Program-made: the position numbers and the translations under genes
Notes under the pieces: model-generated
What the model was told of the DNA's origin: nothing
The model's database searches: none
The model's input: only the letters and a program-made list of their open reading frames with translations
Shown: one piece after another, positions 1 through 13,856 of the stretch
Layout of the letters: the number at the start of each line of letters is the position of its first letter
Position numbering within the stretch: position 1 is the stretch's first letter
IMG/VR virus record: IMGVR_UViG_2585427730_000012
DNA: 13,856 bases
Strand: one strand, 5' to 3'
DNA from: a virus
Taxonomy: Duplodnaviria > Heunggongvirae > Uroviricota > Caudoviricetes

Positions 1-1284
1 TTACTTCTTCGCCTCTGCAACCACTTTACTACCCACGCCGCGGTTATTGTATTCCCACATGCGGTTGTAGTTAGTGTCATTCAGATTGCGCTGTATTTCG
101 TCGTTATCATCTACGCTGCCGGTATTACCCGCAAACGGACGATTAGAGATCACCGCATCGGCCCACGGTTTAGCCGTGTTAAAACCTTCGTTGATGGCGC
201 TATCACGGATCACCACCTGACCGTTGGTATTGGCATCAACATCCAGCGAGCGGCCCAGTTGCGCCACACCATCACCGAAAGCATTGAAACGGCTGTTTAC
301 GGCGAGGAAACCGTAGTAAATGTTGGACAGCGTAGCCGGTGCAAACACATACGCTTCTTGCTGAGTACGTGAGTTCACCACGCGGAATTCGGTGTTATCG
401 AACACCACTGCGCCGCGACCAGAAACGATATCCACATCCCCTTCAATGTAGCTGTTGGTCACCAGCGTACGCGGCTGACGGTTGGTTTCCAGACGGTTCT
501 GCACACCGCTGTTGGTGACAAAGAAGGTGTTCTGACGACCGAGAATGTTAACGTTGTTAATCTGTACCTGGTCACCATCAGTACGCAGTGCCACCGCCGG
601 ATGGTTACCTGCATCTACGCTATCGCCCAGCGTGTTTTCGATGGTCAGATTTTGCAGTTGCAGGCCATTGTTTTGTGACCAGAAGACCGCAGAGCAGAGA
701 ACACCGATACTGTCGCTGCGTTTGCTCTGGCAGCTATCGTACATATACCACGCTGGTTTACCTGGCATATATTTGCCGCGCGGGTTGACGTCGTGACGCC
801 AGTCGGCAGGGCTCATGCCACCATCAAGGGAAAGCCCAATCTTCACATCAATCGGTTTTTCACCTGTACCGTACAGAGTAATTCCACCCGGAGCGGCAGG
901 GACATATACCGTTCCCTGATACTCACCAGGCATCACGGCAATATACTGGCGCTTGTTGGTACGCTTGATAATTGCCGCATCTACCGCCGCCTGAATCGTG
1001 GTATGCGTTACACCTTGAGTGCCCGCCGGGCCGACAACAAAGTCAGGTTGCGCAGGCAGGGTAATCGGGGAAGGATTCCACGCTGCAGCACCTGGTGTCA
1101 GGGATGCAAAATAGTGTTGAGCATCGAAATTCTGCGCTTCTTTTGCCGACAGAATCGGGCGAGAAGAGGTACCAGGCGCGGTTTGATCAGAAGGACGTTG
1201 ATCGGGCGGGGTTGAGCTACAGGCGGTCAGCGTCACGCCAAAAGCCAATGCCAGCGCCAGACGGGAAACTGAAAATGTGTTCAC
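1..1284 (-). CDS. ybhC: Host lipoprotein YbhC (pectinesterase-family outer-membrane lipoprotein); complete, GTG start
   Basis: 427-aa ORF recalled as E. coli YbhC; N-terminal signal peptide with lipobox LTAC; GGAG about 7 nt upstream of the GTG start; lies next to the attλ core as expected for the gal-side flank of attB. Confidence 0.88.
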   Translation of the reverse strand: MNTFSVSRLALALAFGVTLTACSSTPPDQRPSDQTAPGTSSRPILSAKEAQNFDAQHYFASLTPGAAAWNPSPITLPAQPDFVVGPAGTQGVTHTTIQAAVDAAIIKRTNKRQYIAVMPGEYQGTVYVPAAPGGITLYGTGEKPIDVKIGLSLDGGMSPADWRHDVNPRGKYMPGKPAWYMYDSCQSKRSDSIGVLCSAVFWSQNNGLQLQNLTIENTLGDSVDAGNHPAVALRTDGDQVQINNVNILGRQNTFFVTNSGVQNRLETNRQPRTLVTNSYIEGDVDIVSGRGAVVFDNTEFRVVNSRTQQEAYVFAPATLSNIYYGFLAVNSRFNAFGDGVAQLGRSLDVDANTNGQVVIRDSAINEGFNTAKPWADAVISNRPFAGNTGSVDDNDEIQRNLNDTNYNRMWEYNNRGVGSKVVAEAKK

Positions 1285-1315
1285 AGGTTGCTCCGGGCTA
1301 TGAAATAGAAAAATG

Positions 1316-1427
1316 AATCCGTTGAAGCCTGCTTTTTTATACTAAGTTGGCATTATAAAAAAGCATTGCTTATCAATTTGTTGCAACGAACAGGTCACTA
1401 TCAGTCAAAATAAAATCATTATTTGAT
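1316..1427. other. attL: Prophage attL (host B arm / 15-bp core 1331-1345 / phage P' arm with Int arm-type and IHF H' sites)
   Basis: Exact λ common core GCTTTTTTATACTAA at 1331-1345; upstream TGAAGCCT matches the attB left arm; downstream GTTGGCATTATAAAAAAGCATTGCTTATCAATTTGTTGCAACGAACAGGTCACTATCAGTCAAAATAAAATCATTATTTG matches the λ attP P' arm as recalled. Outer limits are approximate. Confidence 0.9.
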
Positions 1428-2489
1428 TTCAATTTTGTCCCACTCCCTGCCTCTGTCATCACGATACTGTGATGCCATGGTGTCCGACTTATGCCCGAGA
1501 AGATGTTGAGCAAACTTATCGCTTATCTGCTTCTCATAGAGTCTTGCAGACAAACTGCGCAACTCGTGAAAGGTAGGCGGATCCCCTTCGAAGGAAAGAC
1601 CTGATGCTTTTCGTGCGCGCATAAAATACCTTGATACTGTGCCGGATGAAAGCGGTTCGCGACGAGTAGATGCAATTATGGTTTCTCCGCCAAGAATCTC
1701 TTTGCATTTATCAAGTGTTTCCTTCATTGATATTCCGAGAGCATCAACATGCAATGCTGTTGGGATGGCAATTTTTACGCCTGTTTTGCTTTGCTCGACA
1801 TAAAGATATCCATCTACGATATCAGACCACTTCATTTCGCATAAATCACCAACTCGTTGCCCGGTAACAACAGCCAGTTCCATTGCAAGTCTGAGCCAAC
1901 ATGGTGATGATTCTGCTGCTTGATAAATTTTCAGGTATTCGTCAGCCGTAAGTCTTGATCTCCTTACCTCTGATTTTGCTGCGCGAGTGGCAGCGACAGG
2001 GTTTGTTGTTATATGGCCTTCAGCTATTGCCTCTCGGAATGCATCGCTCAGTGTTGATCTGATTAACTTGGCTGACGCCGCCTTGCCCTCGTCTATGTAT
2101 CCATTGAGCATTGCCGCAATTTCTTTTGTGGTGATGTCTTCAAGTGGAGCATCAGGCAGACCCCTCCTTATTGCTTTAATTTTGCTCATGTAATTTATGA
2201 GTGTCTTCTGCTTGATTCCTCTGCTGGCCAGGATTTTTTCGTAGCGATCAAGCCATGAATGTAACGTAACGGAATTATCACTGTTGATTCTCGCTGTCAG
2301 AGGCTTGTGTTTGTGTCCTGAAAATAACTCAATGTTGGCCTGTATAGCTTCAGTGATTGCGATTCGCCTGTCTCGGCCTAATCCAAACTCTTTACCCGTC
2401 CTTGGGTCCCTGTAGCAGTAATATCCATTGTTTCTTATATAAAGGTTAGGGGGTAAATCCCGGCGCTCATGACTTCGCCTTCTTCCCAT
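1419..2489 (-). CDS. int: Integrase (λ Int, tyrosine recombinase), 356 aa
   Basis: Protein begins MGRRRSHERRDLPPNLYIRNNGYYCYRDPRTGKEFGLG and ends ...REWDKIEIK, matching λ Int as recalled; adjacent to attL; overlaps xis as in λ. Confidence 0.97.
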   Translation of the reverse strand: MGRRRSHERRDLPPNLYIRNNGYYCYRDPRTGKEFGLGRDRRIAITEAIQANIELFSGHKHKPLTARINSDNSVTLHSWLDRYEKILASRGIKQKTLINYMSKIKAIRRGLPDAPLEDITTKEIAAMLNGYIDEGKAASAKLIRSTLSDAFREAIAEGHITTNPVAATRAAKSEVRRSRLTADEYLKIYQAAESSPCWLRLAMELAVVTGQRVGDLCEMKWSDIVDGYLYVEQSKTGVKIAIPTALHVDALGISMKETLDKCKEILGGETIIASTRREPLSSGTVSRYFMRARKASGLSFEGDPPTFHELRSLSARLYEKQISDKFAQHLLGHKSDTMASQYRDDRGREWDKIEIK

Positions 2490-2685
2490 TTCTGATCCTC
2501 TTCAAAAGGCTACCTGTTACTGGTCGATTTAAGTCAACCTTTACCGCTGATTCGTGGAACAGATATTCTCTTCCATCCTTAACCGGAGGAGGGAATATCC
2601 TGCATTCGCGCACCCATCGACGAACTGTTTCAAGGCTTCTTGGGCGTCGCTGGCGAGCGTTCCACTCCTGAAGTGTCAAGTACAT
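2467..2685 (-). CDS. xis: Excisionase (λ Xis), 72 aa
   Basis: MYLTLQEWNARQRRPRSLETVRRWVRECRIFPPPVKDGREYLFHESAVKVDLNRPVTGSLLKRIRNGKKAKS matches λ Xis as recalled; 3' end overlaps the int start. Confidence 0.95.
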   Translation of the reverse strand: MYLTLQEWNARQRRPRSLETVRRWVRECRIFPPPVKDGREYLFHESAVKVDLNRPVTGSLLKRIRNGKKAKS

Positions 2686-2724
2686 CGCAAAGTCTCCGCA
2701 ATTACACGCAAGAAAAAACCGCCA

Positions 2725-2892
2725 TCAGGCGGCTTGGTGTTCTTTCAGTTCTTCAATTCGAATATTGGTTACGTCTGCATGTGCTATCTGCGCCCACAGC
2801 ATCCAGTGGTCATAGCAGTCGCTGATGTTCTCGGCTTCGATAACTCTGTTGAATGGTTCTCCATTCCATTCACCTGTGACTCGGAAGTGCAT
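2725..2892 (-). CDS. Small phage protein, λ orf55-like (55 aa), function unknown
   Basis: Hand-translated from the minus strand: MHFRVTGEWNGEPFNRVIEAENISDCYDHWMLWAQIAHADVTNIRIEELKEHQAA, then TGA. GGAG sits 7 nt upstream of the ATG. Below the ORF-track length cutoff; position corresponds to λ orf55 downstream of xis. Confidence 0.65.
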   Translation of the reverse strand: MHFRVTGEWNGEPFNRVIEAENISDCYDHWMLWAQIAHADVTNIRIEELKEHQAA

Positions 2893-3134
2893 TTATCATC
2901 TCCATAAAACAAACCCCGCCGTAGCGAGTTCAGATAAAAGAAATCCTCGTCAGTGCGAGGATGCTGTTCATTGCTGCTATACACTTTTTTGCTCTCAACG
3001 TAAGCGGTAGCCCATTCTGTTGGGTTGGTGCAGTTGCTTTTAGGAAATGCTATTTACCCCTTAAATGTCGGCTGAAAGAGCTAAAATCCATGCAAAAAAT
3101 TTACGCAATTTTGTGTATTATTGTGCAGTAAGTA

Positions 3135-3737
3135 ATGAGCTATTTTCTGCGCAAAAAATGGATGGTAAATTTGTCCGGGTCAGGAAAAATTTTATGGGCG
3201 CTAAACATGAAAAAAGATTCGTATCCTTATTTGATTTGCATGACAGTTTCAGGGCTGATCTTTATTTTCCTTTTCTTCTGGTGGCGGGCAGATATCTACA
3301 GGGTCACGTTTCTTAATCAGAGTATATCCCACTATTACATTCTGTTTAGCATGGGAATAGCTTTTCTGTTATCTCTGTTTTGGGTTAAGAAGGGGATAGT
3401 AAAACAAAGCGGCTGGAAGAGTCTGTCAGCATACCTTAAGGTTTATGCAGGGATGTGCATATTTGCTGGATTTTTTCTGATTATACCCCTTACGACACTA
3501 ACTTATTTTTTGCCTGGAGAGACATCGTCTTATGTTGCACCGTATCGGTATACTTCCGGTAGTTCAAAAAGTTGTTCTGGAGCTGAGGTGGATGACCCCG
3601 ATCTACATGAGAATATTCGCATTTGCTATCCGTATGGCAATTATGAGTACGATAATATTATCTATGTTGAAAAGAAAATTAATATATTAGGTGCGGTAGT
3701 GACATATGCACAGACCGCGCGTGATGATACTGAATGA
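3135..3737 (+). CDS. Moron-encoded multi-pass membrane protein of unknown function (200 aa from first ATG; alternative starts at 3162 or 3207)
   Basis: A 200-codon open frame in visibly AT-rich DNA, where stop codons are frequent by chance. Three to four hydrophobic segments (LICMTVSGLIFIFLFFWW, YYILFSMGIAFLLSLFWV, YAGMCIFAGFFLIIPLTTLTYFL) precede a roughly 70-aa hydrophilic C-terminal domain. Opposite strand to the flanking phage genes. No convincing Shine-Dalgarno at any of the three candidate ATGs. Confidence 0.65.
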   Translation: MSYFLRKKWMVNLSGSGKILWALNMKKDSYPYLICMTVSGLIFIFLFFWWRADIYRVTFLNQSISHYYILFSMGIAFLLSLFWVKKGIVKQSGWKSLSAYLKVYAGMCIFAGFFLIIPLTTLTYFLPGETSSYVAPYRYTSGSSKSCSGAEVDDPDLHENIRICYPYGNYEYDNIIYVEKKINILGAVVTYAQTARDDTE

Positions 3738-3771
3738 TATAGTATATAGCGGGCAAGTTTTAGTTAATTTA

Positions 3772-3805
3772 TCGAGGTAATATAATTTACCTCGACTCGT
3801 TTGTT
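3772..3805 (+). terminator. Putative intrinsic terminator for the membrane-protein moron (perfect 9-bp stem, TATAAT loop, T-rich tail)
   Basis: TCGAGGTAA-TATAAT-TTACCTCGA is a perfect inverted repeat at 3772-3795, followed by CTCGTTTGTTCTGG; lies about 35 bp after the moron stop codon. Confidence 0.45.
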
Positions 3806-3947
3806 CTGGTATTAATATTTCGCTTTACGACCGATTTTTATCTGATGATATCATGCGGTTTTCATATACTGACTTACTGTCTTTTCTCCGTTAGCGATTT
3901 TCTCCTGCTCAGCGATGATTTTATCTTTGGCTTCTAGTTAATTTCGC

Positions 3948-4169
3948 TCACTTCGAACCTCTCTGTTTACTGATAAGCTCCAGATCTTGCTGGCAACTGG
4001 CACAAGTCCGACAACCCTGAACGGCCAGTCGTCTTCGTTCATCTATCGGATCGCCACACTCACAACAATGAGTGGCAGATATAGCCTGGTGGTTCAGGCG
4101 GCGCATTTTTATTGCTGTGTTGCGCTGTAATTCTTCAATTTCTGATGCTGAATCAATTATGTCTGCCAT
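3948..4169 (-). CDS. DksA/TraR-family C4 zinc-finger protein (λ Orf73 / TraR-like), 73 aa
   Basis: Contains CCECGDPIDERRRLAVQGCRTCASCQ, a CxxC-(17)-CxxC zinc-finger signature typical of TraR/DksA proteins; size and position fit the λ TraR homologue Orf73. Confidence 0.75.
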   Translation of the reverse strand: MADIIDSASEIEELQRNTAIKMRRLNHQAISATHCCECGDPIDERRRLAVQGCRTCASCQQDLELISKQRGSK

Positions 4170-4267
4170 CTTTCATTAATCCCTGAATTGTTGGTTAATA
4201 CGCTTGAGGGTGAATGCGAATAATAAAAAAGGAGCCTGTAGCTCCCTGATGATTTTGCTTTTCATGT

Positions 4268-4483
4268 TCACCGTTCCTTAAAGACGCCGTTCAACATGCC
4301 GATCGCCAGGCTTAAATGAGTCGGTGTGAATCCCATCAGCGTTACCGTTTCGCGGTGCTTCTTTAGTACGCTACGGCAAATGTCATCGACGTTTTTATCC
4401 GGAAACTGCTGTCTGGCTTTTTTGATTTCAGAATTAGCCTGACGGGCAATGCTGCGAAGGGCGTTTTCTTGCTGAGGTGTCAT
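4268..4483 (-). CDS. Small phage protein of unknown function in the orf61 position (71 aa from the internal ATG; the ORF extends to 4549 if the upstream ATG is used)
   Basis: Open frame 4268-4549; the charged, helix-like sequence begins at MTPQQENALRSIARQANSEIKKARQQFPDK, whereas the 22 residues upstream (MHFSGSGLHILCAYACRHGACS) look unlike protein. Start assignment is uncertain. Confidence 0.5.
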   Translation of the reverse strand: MTPQQENALRSIARQANSEIKKARQQFPDKNVDDICRSVLKKHRETVTLMGFTPTHLSLAIGMLNGVFKER

Positions 4484-4559
4484 TGAACAAGCCCCATGTC
4501 GGCAAGCATAAGCACACAGAATATGAAGCCCGCTGCCAGAAAAATGCATTCAGTGGTTG

Positions 4560-4751
4560 TCATACCTGGTCTCTCTCATCTGCTTCTGCTTTCGCCACCA
4601 TCATTTCCAGCTTTTGTGAAAGGGATGCGGCTAACGTATGAAATTCTTCGTCTGTTTCTACTGGTATTGGCACAAACCTGACTCCAATTTGAGCGAGGCT
4701 ATGTGCCATCTCGATACTCGTTCTTAACTCAACGGGAGATGCTTTGTGCAT
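4560..4751 (-). CDS. λ orf63-like small protein (63 aa)
   Basis: A 63-aa ORF whose coordinates map exactly onto λ orf63 when the same offset that fits exo, bet, gam, kil, cIII and ea10 is applied. Confidence 0.7.
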   Translation of the reverse strand: MHKASPVELRTSIEMAHSLAQIGVRFVPIPVETDEEFHTLAASLSQKLEMMVAKAEADERDQV

Positions 4752-4906
4752 ACAGCTCCCCGTTTATTATTTATCTCCTCAGCCAGCCGCTGTGCTTTCA
4801 GGGGATTTCTGATAACAGAAAGGCCGGGAAATACCCAGCCTCGCTTTGTAACGGAGTAGACGAAAGTGATCGCACCTACCCGGATATTATCGTGAGGATG
4901 CTTCAT
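4724..4906 (-). CDS. λ orf60a-like small protein (60 aa; an ATG two codons upstream at 4912 is also possible)
   Basis: [34 protein letters not shown]...; its start overlaps the exo stop codon, the arrangement recalled for λ exo/orf60a. Confidence 0.7.
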
Positions 4907-5583
4907 CGCCATTGCTCCCCAAATACAAAACCAATTTCAGCCAGTGCCTCGTCCATTTTTTCGATGAACTCCGGCACCATCTCGTCAAAACTCGCCATGT
5001 ACTTTTCATCCCGCTCAACCACGACATAATGCAGGCCTTCACGCTTCATACGCGGGTCATAGTTGGCAAAGTACCAGGCATCTTTTCGCGTCACCCACAT
5101 GCTGTACTGCACCTGGGCCATGTAAGCCGACTTTATGGCCTCGAAACCACCGAGCCGGAACTTCATGAAATCCCGGGAGGTAAACGGGCATTTCAGCTCA
5201 AGGCCATTGCCGTCACTGCATAAACCATCGGGAGAGCAGGCGGTACGCATACTTTCGTCGCGATAGATGATCGGGGATTCAGTAACATTCACGCCGGAAG
5301 TGAATTCAAACAGAGTTCTGGCGTCGTTCTCGTACTGTTTTCCCCATGCCAGCGCCTTAGCATTAACTTCCGGAGCCACACCGGTGCAAACCTCAGCCAG
5401 CAGGGTGTGGAAGTAGGACATTTTCATGTCAGGCCACTTTTTTCCGGAGCGGGGTTTTGCTATCACATTGTGAACTTCTGAAGCGGTGATGACGCCGAGC
5501 CGTAATTTGTGCCACGCATCATCCCCCTGTTCGACAGCTCTCACGTCGATTCCGGTACGCTGCAGGATAATGTCCGGTGTCAT
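4903..5583 (-). CDS. exo: λ exonuclease (Red alpha), 226 aa
   Basis: [65 protein letters not shown]... matches λ Exo as recalled; ATGA overlap with the bet stop. Confidence 0.97.
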
Positions 5584-6365
5584 GCAGCCACCTTCTGCTC
5601 AGTGGCTTTCTGTTTCAGGAATCCAAGAGCTTTCACTGCTTCGGCCTGTGTCAGTTCTGACGATGCGCGAATGTCGCGGCGAAATATCTGGGAACAGAGC
5701 GGCAATAAGTCGTCATCCCATGTTTTATCCAGGGCAATCAGCAGAGTGTTAATCTCCTGCATGGTTTCATCGTTAACCGGAGTGATGTCGCGTTCCGGCT
5801 GACGTTCTGCAGTGTATGCGGTATTTTCGACAATGCGCTCGGCTTCATCCTTGTCATAGATACCCGCAAATCCGAAGGCGAGACGGGCACACTGAATCAT
5901 GGCTTTATGCCGTAACATCCGTTTGGGATGCGACTGCCACGGTCCGGTGATTTCTCTGCCTTCGCGGGTTTTGAATGGTTCGCGGCGGCATTCATCCATC
6001 CACTCGGTAACGCAGATCGGATGATTGCGGTCCTTGCGGTAAATCCGGCATGTGCAGGATTCATTGTCCTGCTCAAAGTCCATGCCATCAAACTGCTGGT
6101 TTTCATTGATGATACGGGACCAGCCATCAACGCCCACCACCGGAACGATGCCGTTCTGCTTGTCAGGGAAGGCGTAAATTTCTTTCGTCCACGGATTAAG
6201 GCCGTACTGGTTGGCGACGATCAGCAATGCGATGAACTGCGCATCGCTGGCATCACCTTTAAATGCCGTCTGGCGAAGAGTGGTGATCAGTTCCTGTGGG
6301 TCGACAGAATCCATGCCGACGCGTTCAGCCAGCTTCCCAGCCAGCGTTGCGAGTGCTGTACTCAT
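5580..6365 (-). CDS. bet: λ Bet (Red beta) single-strand annealing protein, 261 aa
   Basis: [100 protein letters not shown]... matches λ Beta as recalled. Confidence 0.97.
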
Positions 6366-6370
6366 CCGTT

Positions 6371-6787
6371 TTATACCTCTGAATCAATATCAACCTGGTG
6401 GTGAGCAATGGTTTCAACCATGTACCGGATGTGTTCTGCCATGCGCTCCTGAAACTCAACATCGTCATCAAACGCACGGGTAATGGCTTTTTTGCTGGCC
6501 CCGTGGCGTTGTAAATGATCGATGCAGAGTGATTCAAACAGGTTCTGGGGCAGACCTTTTTCCATGTCGTCTGCCAGTTCTGCCTCTTTCTCTTCACGGG
6601 CGATCTGCTGGTAGTGACGCGTCCAGCTCTGAGCCTCAAGACGATCCTGAATGTAATAAGCGTTCATGGCTGAACTCCTGAAATAGCTGTGAAAATATCG
6701 CCCGCGAAATGCCGGGCTGATTAGGAAAACAGGAAAGGGGGTTAGTGAATGCTTTTGCTTGATCTCAGTTTCAGTATTAATATCCAT
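6371..6787 (-). CDS. gam: λ Gam (RecBCD inhibitor), 138-aa long form; the internal start [15 protein letters not shown] gives the short form
   Basis: [100 protein letters not shown]... matches λ Gam as recalled. Confidence 0.95.
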
Positions 6788-6885
6788 TTTTTATAAGCGT
6801 CGACGGCCTCACGAAACATCTTTTCATCGCCAATAAAAGTGGCGATAGTGAATTTAGTCTGGATAGCCATAAGTGTTTGATCCAT
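6742..6885 (-). CDS. kil: λ Kil (FtsZ-inhibiting host-killing protein), 47 aa
   Basis: [47 protein letters not shown] is present as the C-terminal part of the 6742-7011 ORF; overlaps the gam start as in λ. Confidence 0.85.
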
Positions 6886-7018
6886 TTTTTGGGACTCCTG
6901 GCTGATTAAGTATGTCGATAAGGCGTTTCCATCCGTCACGTAATTTACGGGTGATTCGTTCAAGTAAAGATTCGGAAGGGCAGCCAGCAACAGGCCACCC
7001 TGCAATGGCATATTGCAT
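6854..7018 (-). CDS. cIII: λ CIII (FtsH inhibitor that stabilises CII), 54 aa
   Basis: Hand-translated: [54 protein letters not shown], then TAA; missed by the ORF track because it is shorter than the cutoff and overlaps kil in another frame. Confidence 0.9.
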   Translation of the reverse strand: MQYAIAGWPVAGCPSESLLERITRKLRDGWKRLIDILNQPGVPKNGSNTYGYPD

Positions 7019-7090
7019 GGTGTGCTCCTTATTTATACATAACGAAAAACGCCTCGAGTGAAGCGTTATTGGTATGCGGTAACGCCGCGC

Positions 7091-7459
7091 TCAGGCGGCT
7101 TTGATAGTCATATCATCTGAATCAAATATTCCTGATGTATCGATATCGGTAATTCTTATTCCTTCGCTACCATCCATTGGAGGCCATCCTTCCTGACCAT
7201 TTCCATCATTCCAGTCGAACTCACACACAACACCATATGCATTTAAGTCGCTTGAAATTGCTATAAGCAGAGCATGTTGCGCCAGCATGATTAATACAGC
7301 ATTTAATACAGAGCCGTGTTTATTGAGTCGGTATTCAGAGTCTGACCAGAAATTATTAATCTGGTGAAGTTTTTCCTCTGTCATTACGTCATGGTCGATT
7401 TCAATTTCTATTGATGCTTTCCAGTCGTAATCAATGATATATTTTTTGATGTTTGACAT
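7091..7459 (-). CDS. ea10: λ Ea10-like protein, 122 aa
   Basis: 122-aa ORF MSNIKKYIIDYDWKASIEIEIDHDVMTEEKLHQINNFWSDSEYRLNKHGSVLNAVLIMLAQHALLIAISSDL...; length and coordinates match λ ea10 under the same offset as the Red genes. Confidence 0.85.
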   Translation of the reverse strand: MSNIKKYIIDYDWKASIEIEIDHDVMTEEKLHQINNFWSDSEYRLNKHGSVLNAVLIMLAQHALLIAISSDLNAYGVVCEFDWNDGNGQEGWPPMDGSEGIRITDIDTSGIFDSDDMTIKAA

Positions 7460-7477
7460 CTATTCATATCCTCACAG

Positions 7478-7505
7478 ATAAAAAATCGCCCTCACATTGG
7501 AGGGC
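7478..7505 (-). terminator. Intrinsic terminator on the leftward (pL) transcript just upstream of ea10
   Basis: Minus strand reads GCCCTC-CAATGT-GAGGGC followed by GATTTTTTATC: a 6-bp GC-rich stem with a U-run. Confidence 0.55.
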
Positions 7506-7719
7506 AAAGAAGATTTCCAATAATCAGAACAAGTCGGCTCCTGTTTAGTTACGAGCGACATTGCTCAGTGTATTCACTCGTTGGAATGAATACACAGTGC
7601 AGTGTTTATTAGTATGCCTGTCTTTTAACCACATCAGGCTCGGTGGTTCTCGTGTACCCCTACAGCGAGAAATCGGATAAACTCTATTCACCCCTACAGA
7701 GAGCAAAAGAGAAACGCCG

Positions 7720-8301
7720 ATGAACAACTCATGGTGGCAGGAACTAATGCATTTTTTCCTGCAAGGAATGACACTTAAACAGTTGATTCATATGCTAATC
7801 ATCCTGATCATATTGATTATTGTTATGCCTGTAAGCGTAAAAGAATGGATAAACCTGCATAATCCAGAAATCCTTCCTCATTACTGGATGTATTACATCC
7901 TGTTGTTTTGCGTTAGCTATGTGCTTAACGGCGTTGTTAATTCCGCTTATCACGCTGTGACTGAAAGAATTGAGATATTCGCTGCTCAGAAGCGCAAATC
8001 TAAAGAAGAGAAATACGTGCAAGATTTGTTTGATTCGTTAACTCTTGGAGAAAGAGCGTATTTGGCATTCGCTGTAGCCGCTAATAACCAGCTAAAGACA
8101 GAAAAGGGAAGCCCTGAAGCAATCTCATTGCTCGAAAAAGGGCTTCTTATTCGGGTACCTTCTGCTACTGGATATCCTGAAATCGACCGTTTTGTTATCC
8201 CGGAACGCTATAGAAATGAGTGCTACATTAGGTTTGCTGGGAAGAAAGACAGTCTTATGGATGAACTTATCGCTCAGGATAAGCATGGCAAAAACAAGTA
8301 A
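7720..8301 (+). CDS. sieB: Superinfection exclusion protein B (SieB), membrane protein; 193 aa from first ATG, 184 aa from ATG at 7747
   Basis: N-terminal hydrophobic segment LIHMLIILIILIIVMPVSV; opposite strand to the surrounding early-left genes; ends 16 bp before the N-like gene, as λ sieB does; the 184-aa form matches the recalled λ sieB length and coordinates. Confidence 0.82.
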   Translation: MNNSWWQELMHFFLQGMTLKQLIHMLIILIILIIVMPVSVKEWINLHNPEILPHYWMYYILLFCVSYVLNGVVNSAYHAVTERIEIFAAQKRKSKEEKYVQDLFDSLTLGERAYLAFAVAANNQLKTEKGSPEAISLLEKGLLIRVPSATGYPEIDRFVIPERYRNECYIRFAGKKDSLMDELIAQDKHGKNK

Positions 8302-8317
8302 TTAGCAAATTAATTTA

Positions 8318-8590
8318 TCATCTCGCCGTCAGTTGTTTTGATTTCCGGTAGCCTGCCGCGTAAATGGCTACGTTTGGCAGGCAAATACTTCCACTGCATT
8401 CATCTGCCTTCTTGCAGCGAAGGCTTCCGAGTGATGCTGCTTTGTCTGCTCTGACGCAACCAGAGAGCTTTAGCGCAATTTTTCGCGCCAGTCGCTGTTC
8501 TTGCATTGCCTGCTCACGTTGAGCCTGTCTGCGTGCTCTGCGGCGATTTCTGGCGTTATTGTCAGCCAGATATGTAATGACTACTGCCAT
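8318..8590 (-). CDS. N-type transcription antiterminator, P22 gene 24-like, with arginine-rich motif; 90 aa
   Basis: MAVVITYLADNNARNRRRARRQAQREQ... has an arginine-rich N-terminus and the C-terminal ...NVAIYAAGYRKSKQLTAR resembling P22 gp24; GGAGG lies 5 nt upstream of the ATG; immediately downstream of nutL/pL. It is not λ N. Confidence 0.75.
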   Translation of the reverse strand: MAVVITYLADNNARNRRRARRQAQREQAMQEQRLARKIALKLSGCVRADKAASLGSLRCKKADECSGSICLPNVAIYAAGYRKSKQLTAR

Positions 8591-8697
8591 GTTGACCTCC
8601 GATGATTAACTTTGGCGGTGACGCGCCGGGTGCTTATCTTCCGGTTGCCGTCGTGCAGCTGCACTTCACGTCACCCCAAAGCCAACTACTCTTTGGT

Positions 8698-8738
8698 TCC
8701 CGCATTTCGGCGGGACAATCCCATCAATGTTAAAGAGC
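8698..8738 (-). promoter_or_regulatory. nutL: nutL: boxA (GCTCTTTAACA, 8728-8738) and boxB hairpin (UCCCGC-CGAAAU-GCGGGA, 8698-8715)
   Basis: The boxB hairpin is identical to the one after cro (nutR) and boxA is the same in both; order boxA-spacer-boxB on the leftward transcript between pL and the N-like gene. Confidence 0.8.
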
Positions 8739-8779
8739 CTGCCAATCTGTTCCGTTTGGCTACCAGCGTCCTGCCGATG

Positions 8780-8880
8780 ACTTAAATTTAAGATTTCTTT
8801 AACTATTGGTCAAGAGTGTTTTTGAAGAAAACTTAAATTTTGTTGCGAAGCTTAAGTTTTGCTTTGATTTTTAAAGGAAA
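8780..8880 (-). promoter_or_regulatory. pL promoter / OL operator region (P22-type operators)
   Basis: Minus-strand TTGACC (8808-8813), 17-bp spacer, TAAATT (8785-8790); AT-rich palindromic half-sites of the ATTTAAGA / TCTTAAAT type (e.g. 8783-8800 and about 8841-8872) resemble P22 c2 operators. Exact operator limits not resolved. Confidence 0.5.
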
Positions 8881-8905
8881 GAAAAAAAGGGGCGAATGCC
8901 CCTTA
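8880..8905 (-). terminator. Intrinsic terminator at the end of the c2 repressor gene
   Basis: Minus strand AAGGGGC-ATTC-GCCCCTT followed by TTTTTTTC; overlaps the c2 stop codon. Confidence 0.6.
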
Positions 8906-9553
8906 TGGAAGGTTTGCTATTTTTGCATCGACAACTACACCGATGATTTTGCAGTTCCCGTTGATCTCAATCATCGGATATTGTGGGTTAAGTGGTTTTA
9001 GAAACCTTCTGCCAGCATCAATAACTAACTTCTTGAAAGTTGCCTCGTTTTCTCCTTCGAGCTTTGCCACTACCAGCTTCCCATTACGAGGTTCTACTTC
9101 AGGATCGACTAGTATTATCATCCCTTCCGGGATGCTAAGACCGGCTGGAGCCGTCATCGAATCACCCTTTACGTCCAGCCAAAACGAATCTTCTGAACAA
9201 TCTACGGTTGTATCGTACCAGTTATCTATTGCACGCTTATGATATGGCTCTACAGCTTCCATCCAACATCCTGCGCTTACCCAACTAATTAGAGGATACG
9301 AACCTCTTGGATCATGCCTGCTGTGATAGGCAATGTTTGAAAGACTATCTTCTCCTTTCAACAAGTAATCAGGGGAGCACTGTAAAGCCTTGGCTAAAGC
9401 CAATAGGTTTTCGCCATTGGGCTCAGTTTCAGAACGCTCCCATTGGGAAATAGCAACATTAGACACGCCAACCATCTTGCCGAGGGCAGCCTGCCTAATC
9501 TTAAGTTCTTTTCTGCGAGCGCGAATACGCTCACCCATCAGTTGTGTATTCAT
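8903..9553 (-). CDS. c2: Prophage repressor, P22 C2-type (HTH DNA-binding domain plus LexA/S24-like autocleavage domain), 216 aa
   Basis: MNTQLMGERIRARRKELKIRQAALGKMVGVSNVAISQWERSETEPNGENLLALAKALQCSPDYLLKG... ...GDSMTAPAGLSIPEGMIILVDPEVEPRNGKLVVAKLEGENEATFKKL... closely matches P22 c2 as recalled, with a few apparent substitutions; divergently transcribed from cro. Confidence 0.95.
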   Translation of the reverse strand: MNTQLMGERIRARRKELKIRQAALGKMVGVSNVAISQWERSETEPNGENLLALAKALQCSPDYLLKGEDSLSNIAYHSRHDPRGSYPLISWVSAGCWMEAVEPYHKRAIDNWYDTTVDCSEDSFWLDVKGDSMTAPAGLSIPEGMIILVDPEVEPRNGKLVVAKLEGENEATFKKLVIDAGRRFLKPLNPQYPMIEINGNCKIIGVVVDAKIANLP

Positions 9554-9633
9554 AGTTAAGACATCTTAAATAAACTTGACTTAAGATTCCTTTGATAGAT
9601 AATTTAAGTGTTCTTTAATTTCGGGGCGAGTCT
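9554..9633. promoter_or_regulatory. OR operators with divergent pRM/pR promoters
   Basis: Palindromic operator AGTTAAGACATCTTAAAT (9554-9571) and a related site ATTTAAGTGTTCTTTAAT (about 9603-9620); pR -35 TTGACT (9575-9580) with GATAAT 16 bp downstream; sits between the c2 start and the cro start. Confidence 0.65.
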
Positions 9634-9819
9634 ATGTACAAGAAAGATGTTATCGACCACTTCGGAACCCAGCGTGCGGTAGCTAAAGCGTTAGGCATTA
9701 GCGATGCAGCAGTCTCTCAGTGGAAGGAAGTCATCCCAGAGAAAGACGCCTATCGACTGGAAGTCGTTACAGCTGGCGCCCTGAAGTATCAAGAAAGTGC
9801 TTATCGCAAAGCGGCATAA
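9634..9819 (+). CDS. cro: Cro repressor, P22-type, 61 aa
   Basis: MYKKDVIDHFGTQRAVAKALGISDAAVSQWKEVIPEKDAYRLEVVTAGALKYQESAYRKAA matches P22 Cro as recalled. Confidence 0.9.
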   Translation: MYKKDVIDHFGTQRAVAKALGISDAAVSQWKEVIPEKDAYRLEVVTAGALKYQESAYRKAA

Positions 9820-9826
9820 GCAAATT

Positions 9827-9869
9827 GCTCTTTAACAGTCATGGTCCTTATTCCCGCCGAAATGCGGGA
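9827..9869 (+). promoter_or_regulatory. nutR: nutR: boxA (GCTCTTTAACA, 9827-9837) and boxB hairpin (UCCCGC-CGAAAU-GCGGGA, 9852-9869)
   Basis: Immediately after the cro stop; the boxB hairpin is identical to the nutL copy. Confidence 0.8.
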
Positions 9870-9927
9870 ATACAACGCGCATCAGTTGGTGCGTATAACT
9901 TCTTATTTGTTAAGGAAATACTTACAT

Positions 9928-10206
9928 ATGCAACTTACAAGTACTCGCAAGAAAGCGAATGCAATCACAAGCAACATCCTGAATCGAATTGCTGTACGTG
10001 GTCAGCGAAAGGTTGCTGATGCATTAGGGATTAATGAATCGCAAATTTCGCGATGGAAAGACAGCTTTATCCCAAAGATGGCCATGCTTCTGGCTGTGCT
10101 GGAGTGGGGTGTTGAAGACGAGGAATTAGCAAAGCTAGCAAAGAAAGTAGCCATGGTGCTGACAAAAGAAAAGCCTCAAGACTGCTGCAACAGTTTTGAG
10201 GCCTGA
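9928..10206 (+). CDS. c1: CII-type transcriptional activator (P22 C1-like), 92 aa
   Basis: MQLTSTRKKANAITSNILNRIAVRGQRKVADALGINESQISRWKDSFIPKMAMLLAVLEWGVEDEELAKLAKK... matches P22 c1 as recalled; AGGA about 11 nt upstream; the ORF-track frame runs further upstream but this ATG is the supported start. Confidence 0.85.
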   Translation: MQLTSTRKKANAITSNILNRIAVRGQRKVADALGINESQISRWKDSFIPKMAMLLAVLEWGVEDEELAKLAKKVAMVLTKEKPQDCCNSFEA

Positions 10207-10240
10207 TGTAGAAAGACTGGATCAATCCACAGGAGTCATT

Positions 10241-11140
10241 ATGACAAATACAGCAAAAATACTCAACTTCGGCAGAGGTAACTTTGCCGGACAGGAGCGT
10301 AATGTGGCAGATCTCGATGATGGTTACGCCAGACTATCAAATATGCTGCTTGAGGCTTATTCAGGCGCAGATCTGACCAAGCGACAGTTTAAAGTGCTGC
10401 TTGCCATTCTGCGTAAAACCTATGGGTGGAATAAACCAATGGACAGAATCACCGATTCTCAACTTAGCGAGATTACAAAGTTACCTGTCAAACGGTGCAA
10501 TGAAGCCAAGTTAGAACTCGTCAGAATGAATATTATCAAGCAGCAAGGCGGCATGTTTGGACCAAATAAAAACATCTCAGAATGGTGTATCCCTCAAAAC
10601 GAGGGAAAATCCCCTAAAACGAGGGATAAAACATCCCTCAAATTGGGGGATTGCTATCCCTCAAAACAGGGGGACACAAAAGACACTATTACAAAAGAAA
10701 AAAGAAAAGATTATTCGTCCGAGAATTCTGGCGAATCCTCTGACCAGCCAGAAAACGATCTTTCTGTGGTTAAACCGGATGCTGCAATTCAGAGCGGCAG
10801 TAAGTGGGGAACAGCAGAAGACCTGACCGCCGCAGAGTGGATGTTTGACATGGTGAAGACCATCGCGCCATCAGCCAGAAAACCGAATTTTGCTGGGTGG
10901 GCTAACGATATCCGCCTGATGCGTGAACGTGACGGACGTAACCACCGCGATATGTGTGTGCTTTTCCGCTGGGCCTGCCAGGACAACTTCTGGTCCGGTA
11001 ACGTGCTGAGTCCGGCCAAACTCCGCGACAAGTGGACCCAGCTCGAAATCAACCGTAACAAGCAACAGGCTGGCGTGACAGCCGGAAAACCAAAACTCGA
11101 CCTGACAAACACTGACTGGATTTACGGGGTGGATCTATGA
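10241..11140 (+). CDS. O: Replication initiator O (λ O protein), 299 aa
   Basis: MTNTAKILNFGRGNFAGQERNVADLDDGYARLSNMLLEAYSGADLTKRQFKVLLAILRKTYGWNKPMDRITDSQLSEITKLPVKRCNEAKLELVRMNIIKQQGGMFGPNKNISEW... matches λ O as recalled; GGAG 6 nt upstream of the ATG; ori iterons lie inside the gene. Confidence 0.95.
   Translation: MTNTAKILNFGRGNFAGQERNVADLDDGYARLSNMLLEAYSGADLTKRQFKVLLAILRKTYGWNKPMDRITDSQLSEITKLPVKRCNEAKLELVRMNIIKQQGGMFGPNKNISEWCIPQNEGKSPKTRDKTSLKLGDCYPSKQGDTKDTITKEKRKDYSSENSGESSDQPENDLSVVKPDAAIQSGSKWGTAEDLTAAEWMFDMVKTIAPSARKPNFAGWANDIRLMRERDGRNHRDMCVLFRWACQDNFWSGNVLSPAKLRDKWTQLEINRNKQQAGVTAGKPKLDLTNTDWIYGVDL
10589..10725. repeat. ori: ori λ: four roughly 19-bp iterons (O-protein binding sites) followed by an AT-rich unwinding region
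   Basis: Iterons ATCCCTCAAAACGAGGGA, AATCCCCTAAAACGAGGGA, ACATCCCTCAAATTGGGGGA and TATCCCTCAAAACAGGGGGA at 10589-10674, then the A-rich tract ACAAAAGAAAAAAGAAAAGATTATT. Confidence 0.92.
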
Positions 11141-11838
11141 AAAACATCGCCGCACAGATGGTTAACTTTGACCGTGAGCAGATGCGTCGGATCGCCAACA
11201 ACATGCCGGAACAGTACGACGAAAAGCCACAGGTACAGCAGGTAGCGCAGATCATCAACGGTGTGTTCAGCCAGTTACTGGCAACTTTCCCGGCGAGTCT
11301 GGCTAACCGTGACCAGAACGAACTGAACGAAATCCGCCGCCAGTGGGTTCTGGCTTTCCGGGAAAACGGGATCACCACAATGGAACAGGTTAACGCAGGA
11401 ATGCGCGTAGCCCGTCGGCAGAACCGACCATTCCTGCCATCACCCGGGCAGTTTGTTGCATGGTGCCGGGAAGAAGCATCCGTTATCGCCGGACTGCCAA
11501 ACGTCAGCGAGCTGGTTGATATGGTTTACGAGTATTGCCGGAAGCGAGGCCTGTATCCGGATGCGGAGTCTTATCCGTGGAAATCAAACGCGCACTACTG
11601 GCTGGTTACCAACCTGTATCAGAACATGCGGGCCAATGCGCTTACTGATGCGGAATTACGCCGTAAGGCCGCAGATGAGCTTGTCCATATGACTGCGAGA
11701 ATTAACCGTGGTGAGGCGATCCCTGAACCAGTAAAACAACTTCCTGTCATGGGCGGTAGACCTCTAAATCGTGCACAGGCTCTGGCGAAGATCGCAGAAA
11801 TTAAAGCTAAGTTCGGACTGAAAGGAGCAAGTGTATGA
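11137..11838 (+). CDS. P: Replication protein P (λ P, DnaB helicase loader), 233 aa
   Basis: MKNIAAQMVNFDREQMRRIANNMPEQYDEKPQVQQVAQIINGVFSQLLATFPASLANRDQNELNEIRRQWVLAFRENGITTMEQVNAGMRVARRQNRPFLPSPGQFVAWCREEAS... matches λ P as recalled; ATGA overlap with the O stop. Confidence 0.95.
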   Translation: MKNIAAQMVNFDREQMRRIANNMPEQYDEKPQVQQVAQIINGVFSQLLATFPASLANRDQNELNEIRRQWVLAFRENGITTMEQVNAGMRVARRQNRPFLPSPGQFVAWCREEASVIAGLPNVSELVDMVYEYCRKRGLYPDAESYPWKSNAHYWLVTNLYQNMRANALTDAELRRKAADELVHMTARINRGEAIPEPVKQLPVMGGRPLNRAQALAKIAEIKAKFGLKGASV

Positions 11839-12008
11839 TGGGCAAAGAGGCAATTATTCATTACCTGGGGACGCACAAGAGCTTCTGTGCGCCGGACGTT
11901 GCTGCGACAACAGGTGTGACATTAACCAGCATAAATCAGGCTGCGGCAAAAATGGCGCGGGCAGGAATCCTGGTCATTGATGGTAAGGTCTGGCGAACGT
12001 TTGTTTAA
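11835..12008 (+). CDS. ren: Ren-like protein, C-terminally truncated or replaced (57 aa, against 96 aa in λ)
   Basis: Hand-translated: MMGKEAIIHYLGTHKSFCAPDVAATTGVTLTSINQAAAKMARAGILVIDGKVWRTFV, then TAA. Matches the recalled λ Ren N-terminus (MTGKEAIIHYLGTHNSFCAPDVAALTGATVTSINQAAAKMARAGVLVIEGKVWRT...) and diverges or stops after KVWRT. Overlaps the P stop. Confidence 0.7.
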   Translation: MMGKEAIIHYLGTHKSFCAPDVAATTGVTLTSINQAAAKMARAGILVIDGKVWRTFV

Positions 12009-12154
12009 CGGTTAGCTACTCAGGATGATAGGGCGGGGCAAGTGAGTATGAAGCGGATTTTCAGGAATGCCATCAGAGTTTGGAAATAAAGTGGGTTTTC
12101 TAGTGGCAAGAGACTTGATAATATTTAGTTCTTTGAATCCAAGGAGATAGGGTT

Positions 12155-12649
12155 ATGAGAAAATTTATTTTAGCCTTTGTTATAAGTGCCTCGTTTACAG
12201 CAAATGCTGGTGTAGAGAAGTTAGGGCCGTGGATAACAAAGTCTGAGATAAATAAAATGACTGACCAGACTGACTTTGTGGCCCTTAATTTATCACCAGA
12301 TTCATATAACAAAGCAGGTACTGATCGTGCAACTTCACTGGTGTTGCGTTGTAGTGATAACAAAACAGATGCCTATTTATCATTCAATGATTATATGGGT
12401 TCGGACAACCCAAGAATTACAGTGCGGTTAGATGGCGGAAAGCCGGTCAAGAGTGTTTGGGGAGGTGGGGAAGGCGGTGATTCTGCATTTGCTCCACAAC
12501 CAATACAATTTATAAAGACCTTGGCTAAGCATAAAAAAGCTATTTTTGGGTTTGAACCTTATGGATCAACTATGCAAGTAGTTGAGTTTGACTTGTCTGA
12601 GATTGATAAGGTTGTGGAAAAAATTTCACAGTCTTGCAATTGGAAATGA
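12155..12649 (+). CDS. Moron-encoded secreted (periplasmic or exported) protein of unknown function, 164 aa
   Basis: Strong RBS AAGGAGA 7 nt upstream of the ATG; N-terminal signal peptide MRKFILAFVISASFTANA with an AxA cleavage site and no lipobox cysteine; two cysteines in the mature part; AT-rich; followed by its own terminator. Confidence 0.75.
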   Translation: MRKFILAFVISASFTANAGVEKLGPWITKSEINKMTDQTDFVALNLSPDSYNKAGTDRATSLVLRCSDNKTDAYLSFNDYMGSDNPRITVRLDGGKPVKSVWGGGEGGDSAFAPQPIQFIKTLAKHKKAIFGFEPYGSTMQVVEFDLSEIDKVVEKISQSCNWK

Positions 12650-12666
12650 CAAAAAAATTTCATATG

Positions 12667-12694
12667 AACCCAGTTTGCGCTGGGTTTTTTATTT
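12667..12694 (+). terminator. Intrinsic terminator of the secreted-protein moron
   Basis: AACCCAG-TTTGCG-CTGGGTT followed by a T-run (TTTTTTATTTC), 18 bp after the stop codon. Confidence 0.8.
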
Positions 12695-13175
12695 CAGTAG
12701 CCAATAATGCATTCAAAATCTCTTACTTGAGAAACGGCCTATTTGAGATTTCAGTCGTGGCAGGATGATCAGTTGATTCGAGTATTGACGCATTTGCGTT
12801 CGGAGCGATTACAGTAGATTGTAAATAATAATGAGAAACACATAGCCACCCCGTGGTATTGAAACCATATAATGTTGGATTTGAAAACAGATCTTTTCCC
12901 ATGTATTAATAACTACATCCCCGCGAGTGATTCAAAAAGGAGGGCCCAATTTTGTCCGAGTTTTTGTATTCCCCCGCATGCCGCTGCGGAGCACTACATC
13001 TGAGTGTCTGACTAGGGGATAAAATTAGACTGGATAGTGAGAAGAAAGTGGCGCGCTAGGCTGTGCCGAGTGCTACCAGTACACCTTGGGGGTGTGCAGC
13101 TTTCGCCGAGACTGTAGTGGGTATCGGTTAATGCACGAAAAACCGAGAGGTCAGACAACCAATTTGCCGTAGGAT

Positions 13176-13856
<681 letters not shown>

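Follow-up and report, generated by a model that had tools for sequence, protein, structure and literature searches.

A mosaic early regulatory region in a lambdoid Escherichia coli prophage, with modules related to those of phages 21, P22, HK620, and λ

Organization of the Prophage and Its λ-Type Flanks

The stretch of DNA analyzed here (the window) comprises 13,856 nt of one strand from the IMG/VR record IMGVR_UViG_2585427730_000012 (Caudoviricetes). It carries a prophage that adjoins ybhC at attλ and possesses int and xis of the λ type (98.7% identity to λ across the xis/int region in the blastn map). Between λ-like flanks lies a non-λ block of sieB, N, the repressor gene, cro, and a cII-like gene, and all five proteins of this module match the expected domain families in Pfam and PHROG profiles. 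What was observed directly comprises the gene content, the sequence identities, the positions of motifs and breakpoints, and the frequency in the population.

The initial annotation described the genes on both sides of the immunity genes as λ-like. This description holds on the left up to 7610, with 97.6% identity to λ over 3936–7610 by blastn, and for O and P on the right, with 95.8% identity over 10216–12079, but it fails for sieB, which is of the P22 type. The O gene (10241–11140, plus strand) encodes a λ-type replication initiator sharing 298 of 299 residues (99.7%) with λ O and contains four exact 18-bp λ ori iterons at 10589–10673; P follows next (PF06992, E=5e-62). The ren gene of the window copy has internal stops and an IS100 element abuts the prophage at 13222, with the Q and lysis genes lost next to it, so this copy may be defective. 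In ETEC-2265, where the prophage is complete, the head genes downstream are λ-like. The only Rfam match at the gathering threshold was the λ cIII thermoregulator, and under permissive settings Rfam gave no credible match to nut, to oop, or within the unannotated segment 12650–13221.

SieB and the Left Junction

The sieB gene (7720–8301, plus strand) encodes a P22-type superinfection exclusion protein B (PF14163, E=1e-25; phrog_1301, E=6e-124) with 83.9% amino acid identity to P22 SieB and 20% to λ SieB, and Met25, the internal start of Esc in P22, is kept. No λ DNA match was found across 7700–8301 in either the blastn map or the 50-bp identity map. Upstream lies a conserved linker with the sieB promoter region (7615–7699, plus strand), which is 94% identical to λ, is also present in P22 and HK620, and constitutes the left crossover zone in the blastn map and the base-level alignment; the sieB promoter and RNA start in this linker were transferred from the P22 annotation BK000583. 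Alignment with λ showed that ral and orf28 (341 bp) are absent between 7610 and 7615, and the same ral-less linker is found in the isolated phages HK620, HK629, and HK630. Because sieB is of the P22 type, the left edge of the non-λ block lies at about 7610–7720, which is about 600–700 bp to the left of 8302–8318, where the junction had been placed at first. In the base-level alignments, the breakpoints fall in segments that are conserved among λ, P22, and HK620.

Antiterminator N and the nut Sites

The N gene (8318–8590, minus strand) encodes a 90-aa antiterminator of the HK620/JEP4 type (PF25694, E=9e-16) that shares 88 of 90 residues with JEP4 N and 86 of 90 with HK620 N, compared to lower identities of 35% with P22 gp24 and 42% with 21 N. 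This protein, which is common in E. coli, is a three-part chimera whose arginine-rich N-terminus is of the HK620 type, whose middle is shared with phage 21 N, and whose C-terminus resembles P22 gp24. The arginine-rich motif at its N-terminus (NARNRRRARRQAQREQ) is identical in HK620 and JEP4 and lacks the Trp of λ N.

The nutL site (8699–8738, minus strand) consists of boxA GCTCTTTAACA at 8728–8738 and a predicted boxB hairpin, CCCGC-CGAAAT-GCGGG, at 8699–8714, and equals the annotated nutL of HK620. In nutR (9827–9868, plus strand), the same boxA is found at 9827–9837 and the same boxB, which equals that of the annotated HK620 nutR, at 9853–9868. A single boxB sequence (CCCGCCGAAATGCGGG) is therefore present in two predicted hairpins, one downstream of PL and one downstream of PR. 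The early observation that boxB is unlike that of P22 was borne out; it is also unlike that of phage 21 and belongs to the HK620 type, which had already been sequenced. Compared to P22, the N/boxB pair is the specificity element that differs.

The HK620 type of N and nut was identified by a DNA search with 8490–8750; N together with nutL is 97.2% identical to HK620/HK630 DNA, and the nutR–c1–oop segment is 92.2% identical. A tblastn search of phages with the 44-mer containing the N arginine-rich motif gave no match, probably owing to low-complexity masking, and a sequence comparison of N with the PDB yielded no meaningful match by which the motif could be assigned to a solved λ, P22, or 21 N–boxB complex.

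Operators, Repressor, and Cro

A promoter scan and alignment with P22 and 21 place the predicted PL and its operators at 8785–8857 on the minus strand (–35 TTGACC, –10 TAAATT; OL1 8786–8803, OL2 8821–8838, OL3 8840–8857). The right operator region with PR occupies 9554–9619 on the plus strand (OR3 9554–9571, OR2 9579–9596, OR1 9602–9619), with the –35 element of PR (TTGACT) at 9576–9581, its –10 element (GATAAT) at 9598–9603, and PRM divergent from it. The pattern TTAAG-N4-CTT occurs at six sites, compared to 0.48 expected, and all six lie within OL and OR. In the alignment, OR1 is identical to that of both 21 and P22, and OR2 and OR3 differ by zero to three bases.

The repressor gene (8903–9553, minus strand) encodes a 216-aa prophage repressor of the imm21/P22 c2 class with HTH_3 and S24 domains (PF01381, E=6e-17; PF00717, E=6e-31), including the residues of the self-cleaving S24 domain, Ala94-Gly95, Ser132, and Lys174. 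An intrinsic terminator 3′ of the gene (8886–8904, minus strand) was found by terminator scan, and its position corresponds to the tIMM annotation of HK620. Over the full cI ORF of phage 21/HK629, the repressor matches at 213 of 216 positions (98.6%), and its substitutions relative to 21 (R106K, K183R, and L212I) all lie in the C-terminal domain. Relative to P22 c2 it is 93.1% identical, and the several apparent substitutions that had been seen amount to 15 of the 216 positions. Within residues 1–67 only K16E and S54A differ from P22 c2, both of which also occur in the cI of HK629 and in the full cI ORF of phage 21, and residues 17–53, including the recognition helix, are identical to P22 c2; the structures of the P22 c2 N-terminal domain (PDB 1ADR and 2R1J) match the N-terminus of the repressor. 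The 50-bp identity map indicates an intragenic crossover near 9200 in the repressor gene.

The cro gene (9634–9819, plus strand) encodes a P22/21-type protein of 61 aa (PF14549, E=9e-28) that is 100% identical to Cro of N7 and JEP4, 96.7% identical to that of 21, and 95.1% identical to that of P22. The three differences from P22 (residues 44, 54, and 59) are all outside the N-terminal half, in which we place the helix-turn-helix (HTH) at about residues 13–31.

The cII-Like Activator, oop, and the Right Junction

The cII-like activator gene (9928–10206, plus strand) encodes a 92-aa protein of the P22 c1/HK620 cII type (PF05269, E=5e-44), with the start used by PGAP in ETEC-2265. The protein is 89.1% identical to P22 C1, shares 82 of 92 residues with HK620 cII, and shows 45% identity to λ cII and 22% to 21 cII. 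A longer ORF of 121 aa (9841–10206) was rejected as the cII-like gene; it overlaps the nutR boxB, and the 92-aa start is the one used for P22 c1 and HK620 cII and by PGAP, so 9841 is unlikely to be the true start.

A motif search located a predicted PRE at 9918–9950 (minus strand), with an activator site (TTGCGAGTACTTGT) at 9937–9950 that is homologous to the C1 site of P22 in BK000583 and a –10 element, AAGTAT, at 9918–9923. This TTGC-N6-TTGY site overlaps the 5′ coding end of the cII-like gene, and a further perfect TTGC-N6-TTGC lies at 9961–9974. Another TTGC-N6-TTGC site, a PI equivalent in the λ-type xis/int region (2698–2711, minus strand), is likely a distant target of the C1-type activator.

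An oop-like antisense RNA unit spans 10168–10266 on the minus strand, with pO at 10238–10266 and a terminator hairpin at 10168–10203, as indicated by the promoter scan, the terminator sequence, and the oop annotation of P22. The right crossover falls within this conserved oop/pO segment, where alignments show λ-type sequence from 10216 and P22/HK620-type sequence up to 10248; a right junction at 10207–10240, as initially estimated, was about right. The join of c1 to λ O is also found in phage N7, and a published λ/P22 hybrid was likewise joined in oop/pO (PMC3349717).

Comparison with Known Phages

N, the repressor, Cro, and the cII analogue show 13–45% amino acid identity to their λ counterparts over aligned columns. 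Calling these genes P22-type was right in that they are of the P22/21 family and not of λ, but it was imprecise, since most are closer to other phages; within the module only sieB and the 3′ end of c1 are closest to P22. The best DNA matches of the module as a whole are the E. coli phages N7, IME10, JEP4, and CUS-3 (about 92%). By segment, they are HK620/HK630 for N–nut (97%) and nutR–c1 (92%) and 21/HK629 for the N-terminal half of the repressor gene (98–100%).

Phage 21 (OL657228) and the λ imm21 hybrids resemble the prophage in having λ-type exo, bet, gam, kil, cIII, and ea10 on the left and λ-type O and P on the right (97% DNA identity), and phage 21 shares 213 of 216 repressor residues over the full ORF, 59 of 61 Cro residues, and identical OR1 and OR3. 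Unlike the prophage, phage 21 has ral but no sieB, a 21-type cII, and an arginine-rich motif of N and a boxB that are its own; within the repressor gene, DNA identity is only 72–86% over the C-terminal half.

Compared to the immC region of P22 (sieB-24-c2-cro-c1) and the λimmP22 hybrids, the gene order is identical, the proteins are similar (SieB 84%, C2 93%, Cro 95%, and C1 89%), the operators are near-identical, and oop is conserved. The P22 gene 24/N product is only 35% identical, however, both boxB elements differ, and DNA similarity is absent across 8380–8722; the prophage lacks the P22 genes for replication (18/12) and recombination (erf) as well as immI. P22 itself (Lederbergvirus) was rejected as the identity of the prophage, because the flanks are λ exo/bet/gam and λ O/P and not erf/abc and 18/12. 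Laboratory λimmP22 hybrids have shown that the P22 immunity module functions in a λ backbone (PMC6989128).

HK620 and HK630 share N, the boxB of nutL and nutR, cII, and the ral-less linker after cIII/ea10, and HK630 also carries λ Red genes, but both phages have 434/L-like cI and cro with other operators, hkaP/hkaQ in place of sieB, and HK022-type O and P. The P22-like E. coli phages N7, IME10, JEP4, and CUS-3 give the top DNA match to 8322–10434 (about 91–93%), with an identical Cro, a repressor that is 96.8% identical, and N and boxB of the same type, and N7 joins c1 to the N-terminal part of λ O. Unlike the prophage, these phages belong to the podoviruses (Lederbergvirus), their recombination genes are of the Erf or Sak4 type, their replication genes differ, and sieB is missing at the corresponding position.

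Origin of the Arrangement and Immunity Class

The locus very probably serves a lambdoid E. coli prophage at attλ beside ybhC as its early regulatory (immunity) region and was built from known modules through exchange at short conserved linkers. The view that it is a natural mosaic was upheld: adjacent segments differ in their best relative in the blastn and 50-bp identity maps, and single phage records cover at most 62% of the window. By sequence comparison, the immunity block is a patchwork in itself (HK620-type N/nut, 21/P22-type OL–cI–OR–cro, and P22/HK620-type c1), and the source modules, matching phages 21/P22, HK620, and λ, are all known already. We infer that the exchange between lambdoid phages was homologous or illegitimate at the short linker sequences.

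Among 5,426 complete E. coli genomes, 83 contain the same arrangement, with 100% identity at seven of the matches listed; these 83 come from diverse hosts and countries, and the junctions therefore represent neither a laboratory hybrid nor an assembly artifact. A laboratory λ hybrid (λimm21, λimmP22, or DE3-like) or contamination by a cloning strain would account for the presence of λ imm21, λ h434 imm21, and DE3 among the top overall phage matches and for the similar layout of λ Red, an imm21-like region, and λ O/P. This origin is nevertheless extremely improbable, given that the immunity segment shares only about 86% identity with the imm21 of such constructs, that N/nut, c1, and sieB belong to different types, and that isolates of many different clinical and animal origins carry the prophage in the chromosome beside ybhC, including the seven identical matches. 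Hardly any more credible is an assembly chimera of at least two prophages in one genome, which could be suspected from the several lambdoid prophages per E. coli genome (a median of two matching places per genome) and from the IS100 junction at the right end of the window, which was not found in any complete genome. In genomes that were closed independently, the sequence nevertheless runs unbroken at 100% identity across both ends of the immunity block, and single joins recur in isolated phages (c1 to λ O in N7 and the ral-less linker in HK620, HK629, and HK630).

The initial annotation further proposed an immunity specificity of its own, and here the evidence points the other way. A repressor/operator pair that had diverged from P22 into a new specificity, heteroimmune to λ, 21, 434, and P22, would be consistent with the 15 amino acid differences from P22 c2, with an OL1 that differs in 4 of 18 bases, and with an OL3 that shows little conservation compared to P22 and 21. 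Such a divergence is most improbable, however, as the only changes in the DNA-binding domain, K16E and S54A, are shared with HK629 and 21, residues 17–53 are those of the crystallized P22 c2 domain, OR1 is identical and OR3 identical to that of 21, the variant OL1 half-site TTAAAG has the same form as the right half of P22 OR1, and Cro differs from P22 only outside the N-terminal HTH region. Because residues 17–53 are identical, the repressor matches 21/HK629 cI at 213 positions, the Cro changes lie outside the HTH, and the OR sites are near-identical, the predicted immunity is that of the known imm21/P22 immC class and not a new one. Work by Botstein and Herskowitz in 1974 and by Poteete et al. 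in 1980 is said to have assigned P22 c2 and 21 cI one operator specificity; the literature searched yielded a reference to Poteete et al. 1980 but no passage stating outright that the two phages have a common immunity specificity. The changes in OR2 (one base relative to 21) and OL1 (four relative to 21 and P22) and the C-terminal substitutions could in principle shift affinity or cooperativity. By these comparisons, the arrangement is ordinary modular exchange of the textbook type, and a new immunity specificity is not indicated.

N–boxB complexes have been solved for λ, P22, and 21. Apart from these pairs, the HK620-type N/boxB might represent a fourth antitermination specificity that is as yet experimentally uncharacterized, a suggestion that we regard as tentative and rather doubtful. 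Its boxB, CCCGC-CGAAAU-GCGGG, possibly forms a GAAA tetraloop with a C·U closing pair. As part of the same suggestion, since an HK620-type N/boxB is naturally joined to an imm21-class repressor, N and immunity specificities would assort independently within about 1 kb. A weaker form of the suggestion is that base changes in OL1 and OR2, together with the chimeric C-terminal domain of the repressor, may confer partial, asymmetric immunity relative to 21.

Proposed Regulation and Implications

The following mechanism, including every binding and regulatory activity and the immunity class, is drawn from well-studied homologues. The LexA-like repressor of the 21/P22 c2 class would bind OL and OR, each with three 18-bp operators, shutting PL and PR and conferring immunity to phages of imm21/immC-P22 specificity, and its RecA-stimulated cleavage at Ala94-Gly95 would lead to prophage induction. 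The P22/21-type Cro would act on the same operators as the repressor. The HK620-type N, together with the identical boxB elements of nutL and nutR, boxA, and host Nus factors, would mediate antitermination in both early operons. The C1/HK620 cII-type activator would use TTGC-N6-TTGY at PRE and the λ-type PI, with the λ-type CIII protecting it and the oop antisense RNA opposing it. The P22-type SieB would provide additional abortive exclusion, and the λ-type Red, O, and P modules would be driven from the promoters of the module.

Modular exchange among lambdoid phages was established from the 1970s to the 2000s with λimm21, λimmP22, HK97/HK022, and HK620. The present locus is one more case, with little significance beyond bookkeeping. 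It illustrates that exchange points lie at the edges of regulatory sites (PL/OL1, nutR boxA, and oop/pO) and even within the repressor gene. Lysogens carrying this region, among them clinical isolates of ETEC, should be immune to imm21/P22-immC phages and exhibit P22-type SieB exclusion, and these predictions matter where lambdoid phages are applied to such strains.

Location and boundaries of the block

The sequence opens with ybhC (1–1284, minus strand), followed by a lambdoid prophage at the classical attλ position, whose int/xis region is of the λ type (98.7% DNA identity to λ). Bases 1–13,221 match the E. coli ETEC-2265 chromosome at 99.985% identity, and in that strain the prophage goes on via a DLP12-like nin/Q/lysis region to λ-like head genes. 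In a blastn comparison with λ, matches cover 3936–7610 (97.6%; orf61 through ea10, the Red genes, kil, and cIII) and 10216–12079 (95.8%; O, P, and ren), and similarity is absent between 7700 and 10216. The O protein is identical to λ O at 298 of 299 residues, all four λ iterons are exact (10589–10673), and an intact λ cIII thermoregulator RNA (RF01804, 88.5 bits) precedes cIII, at 6973–7031 on the minus strand. The products of the intervening genes are SieB (PF14163), an N peptide (PF25694), a LexA-like repressor (HTH_3 plus Peptidase_S24), Cro (P22_Cro, PF14549), and a cII-like activator (Phage_CII, PF05269). The blastn flanks and protein families bear out the proposal in the initial annotation of a non-λ early-regulatory block within a backbone of λ-type recombination and replication genes.

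The left junction of this mosaic, which had been placed at 8302–8318 with sieB counted among the λ-like genes, has to be moved, because SieB shares 83.9% identity with P22 SieB but just 20% with λ SieB, and P22 DNA identity covers 7615–8380. λ identity stops at 7610. The 341-bp λ segment with ral and orf28 is missing at 7610–7615, between ea10 and sieB. To the right of this point lies an 85-bp linker (7615–7699) common to λ, P22, and HK620; the same ral-less join and linker are carried by HK620, HK629, and HK630. The right junction, proposed at 10207–10240, was about right, as P22/HK620-type sequence extends to 10248 and λ-type sequence starts at 10216. This crossover maps within the conserved oop/pO segment, past the c1 stop and ahead of the O start, and phage N7 also has the c1-to-λ-O join.

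Patchwork structure and antitermination

A 50-bp identity map of the block against six reference phages, with HK620 and HK630 compared additionally, showed that it is a patchwork of segments with different closest relatives. sieB (7720–8301) is P22-type; N and nutL up to PL (8322–8785) are closest to HK620/HK630 (97.2%); OL, the repressor gene, OR, and cro (8785–9827) are of the phage 21/P22 type; and nutR, the cII-like gene, and oop (9827–10248) are closest to HK620 (92.2%; P22, 82% over 8722–10248). The exchange points fall at regulatory-site boundaries, namely PL/OL1, the nutR boxA, and oop/pO.

Both nutL (8699–8738, minus strand) and nutR (9827–9868) consist of boxA GCTCTTTAACA followed by the same boxB hairpin, CCCGC-CGAAAU-GCGGG. 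This boxB had correctly been described as different from that of P22, and it differs from that of 21 as well. The change goes together with a changed arginine-rich N-terminus of N. The whole N protein is identical to HK620 N at 86 of 90 positions and to JEP4 N at 88 of 90, with only 35% identity to P22 gp24 and 42% to 21 N. HK620, whose nutL and nutR were annotated with its genome, has the same arginine-rich N-terminus and boxB. HK620-type N is a known sequence type, found also in HK630, HK140, mEpX2, mEp213, ECP1, and CUS-3, and its protein clusters range in size from hundreds of E. coli members to more than a thousand. Experimental characterization of its RNA-binding specificity was not found in the literature.

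Repressor, Cro, and immunity specificity

The repressor (gene at 8903–9553) has 15 differences from P22 c2 among its 216 residues, but only K16E and S54A lie in the DNA-binding domain, and residues 17–53 show no difference from the crystallized P22 c2 N-terminal domain. HK629 cI and the full-length phage 21 cI ORF each match it at 213 of 216 positions. The gene has a recombination point near 9200: its DNA-binding half is 92–100% identical to 21/HK629, and the half encoding the C-terminal cleavage and dimerization region is 88–96% identical to N7/JEP4. R183 and I212 of this chimeric repressor occur in none of the repressors compared (P22, 21, HK629, N7, and JEP4).

In the phage 21 record (OL657228, 7256–7906), the repressor is annotated as 190 aa starting at Met27, which would delete helix 1 of the helix-turn-helix. 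That start was probably set too far downstream: from an upstream ATG, the reading frame continues uninterrupted for 216 aa, and the resulting ORF matches HK629 cI exactly.

Cro is identical to 21 Cro at 59 of 61 residues and to P22 Cro at 58 of 61. The changes, at residues 44, 54, and 59, lie outside the N-terminal half, where we place the helix-turn-helix. The window contains six copies of the operator core TTAAG-N4-CTT (0.48 expected), all of them within OL or OR. OR1 does not differ among the six phages aligned; OR3 is the same as in 21, with one central base changed relative to P22; and OR2 is one base off 21 and three off P22. P22 c2 and 21 cI reportedly recognize the same operators. The initial interpretation is thus upheld for the mosaic and not for an immunity specificity of its own: with the recognition region, the Cro helix-turn-helix half, and the operators near-identical to those of P22/21, the sequences make a new specificity very improbable.

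Lysogeny activator and proposed mechanism

The C1-type activator (9928–10206, plus strand) is 89% identical to both P22 C1 and HK620 cII. A candidate PRE has TTGC-N6-TTGT at 9937–9950 with the −10 element AAGTAT, and a candidate PI has a perfect TTGC-N6-TTGC at 2698–2711 in the λ-type xis/int region. The presence of both sites suggests that the activator module would still fit the λ integration module. For oop, promoter and terminator are both intact. Another perfect TTGC-N6-TTGC lies inside c1 (9961–9974, minus strand), 11 bp from the PRE site; a cII binding site is annotated at its equivalent in HK630, whereas the P22 annotation puts the activator site at the upstream TTGC-N6-TTGT instead.

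From homologues, we infer that the repressor would keep PL and PR closed and autoregulate from PRM, and that induction of the prophage would proceed via RecA-stimulated cleavage at Ala94-Gly95, after which Cro and N would act as in λ and P22.

Neighboring features

λ similarity is broken from 2962 to 3936. A 200-aa predicted membrane protein (3135–3737, plus strand; phrog_1416, unknown function), encoded in low-GC DNA on the opposite strand, lies where the λ b-region has ea8.5/ea22. The stretch homologous to λ ren (11835–12105) contains two stop codons on translation and is a pseudogene; its ETEC-2265 counterpart is labelled "frameshifted; internal stop" by PGAP. A low-GC (38–42%) ORF of 164 aa (12155–12649, plus strand), located between ren and the nin region, carries the annotation type VI secretion-associated TagO. 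Its match to PF11319 (VasI) is marginal (26.7 bits versus a cutoff of 26.5), that to phrog_1848 is strong (E=3e-70), and it looks like a moron of unassigned function. The next ~570 bp (12650–13221) have no convincing ORF and no Rfam match at E≤1; the phage match ends there at 12727, and ETEC-2265 carries no annotation in this segment.

In the final stretch of the window (13222–13856), the left end of an IS100 (IS21 family; 99.7–100% identity) begins at 13222. Relative to ETEC-2265, the window skips from prophage position 25222 to IS100 at 30820, so that ~5.6 kb with ybcN, ninE, rusA, Q, a porin gene, and the lysis genes is missing. The prophage–IS100 junction is present in no complete E. coli genome of the collection, and it is either a deletion next to the IS, rendering this prophage copy cryptic, or a join made at the repeat during assembly.

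Prevalence and precedents

At least 80% of 7000–10700 is present in 83 of 5,426 complete E. coli genomes, from hosts including humans, swine, birds, and a frog; among the matches listed, seven are 100% identical across 8000–10500. Phage 21 already joins λ-type Red and O/P genes to the same immunity class. λimm21 (PMC9119081) and λimmP22 (PMC6989128) hybrids are classical laboratory tools, and a λ/P22 hybrid has been described that is joined in oop/pO, as here (PMC3349717). Given these precedents, the region is a new combination of known modules: the mosaic is real, already annotated in public genomes, and unremarkable.
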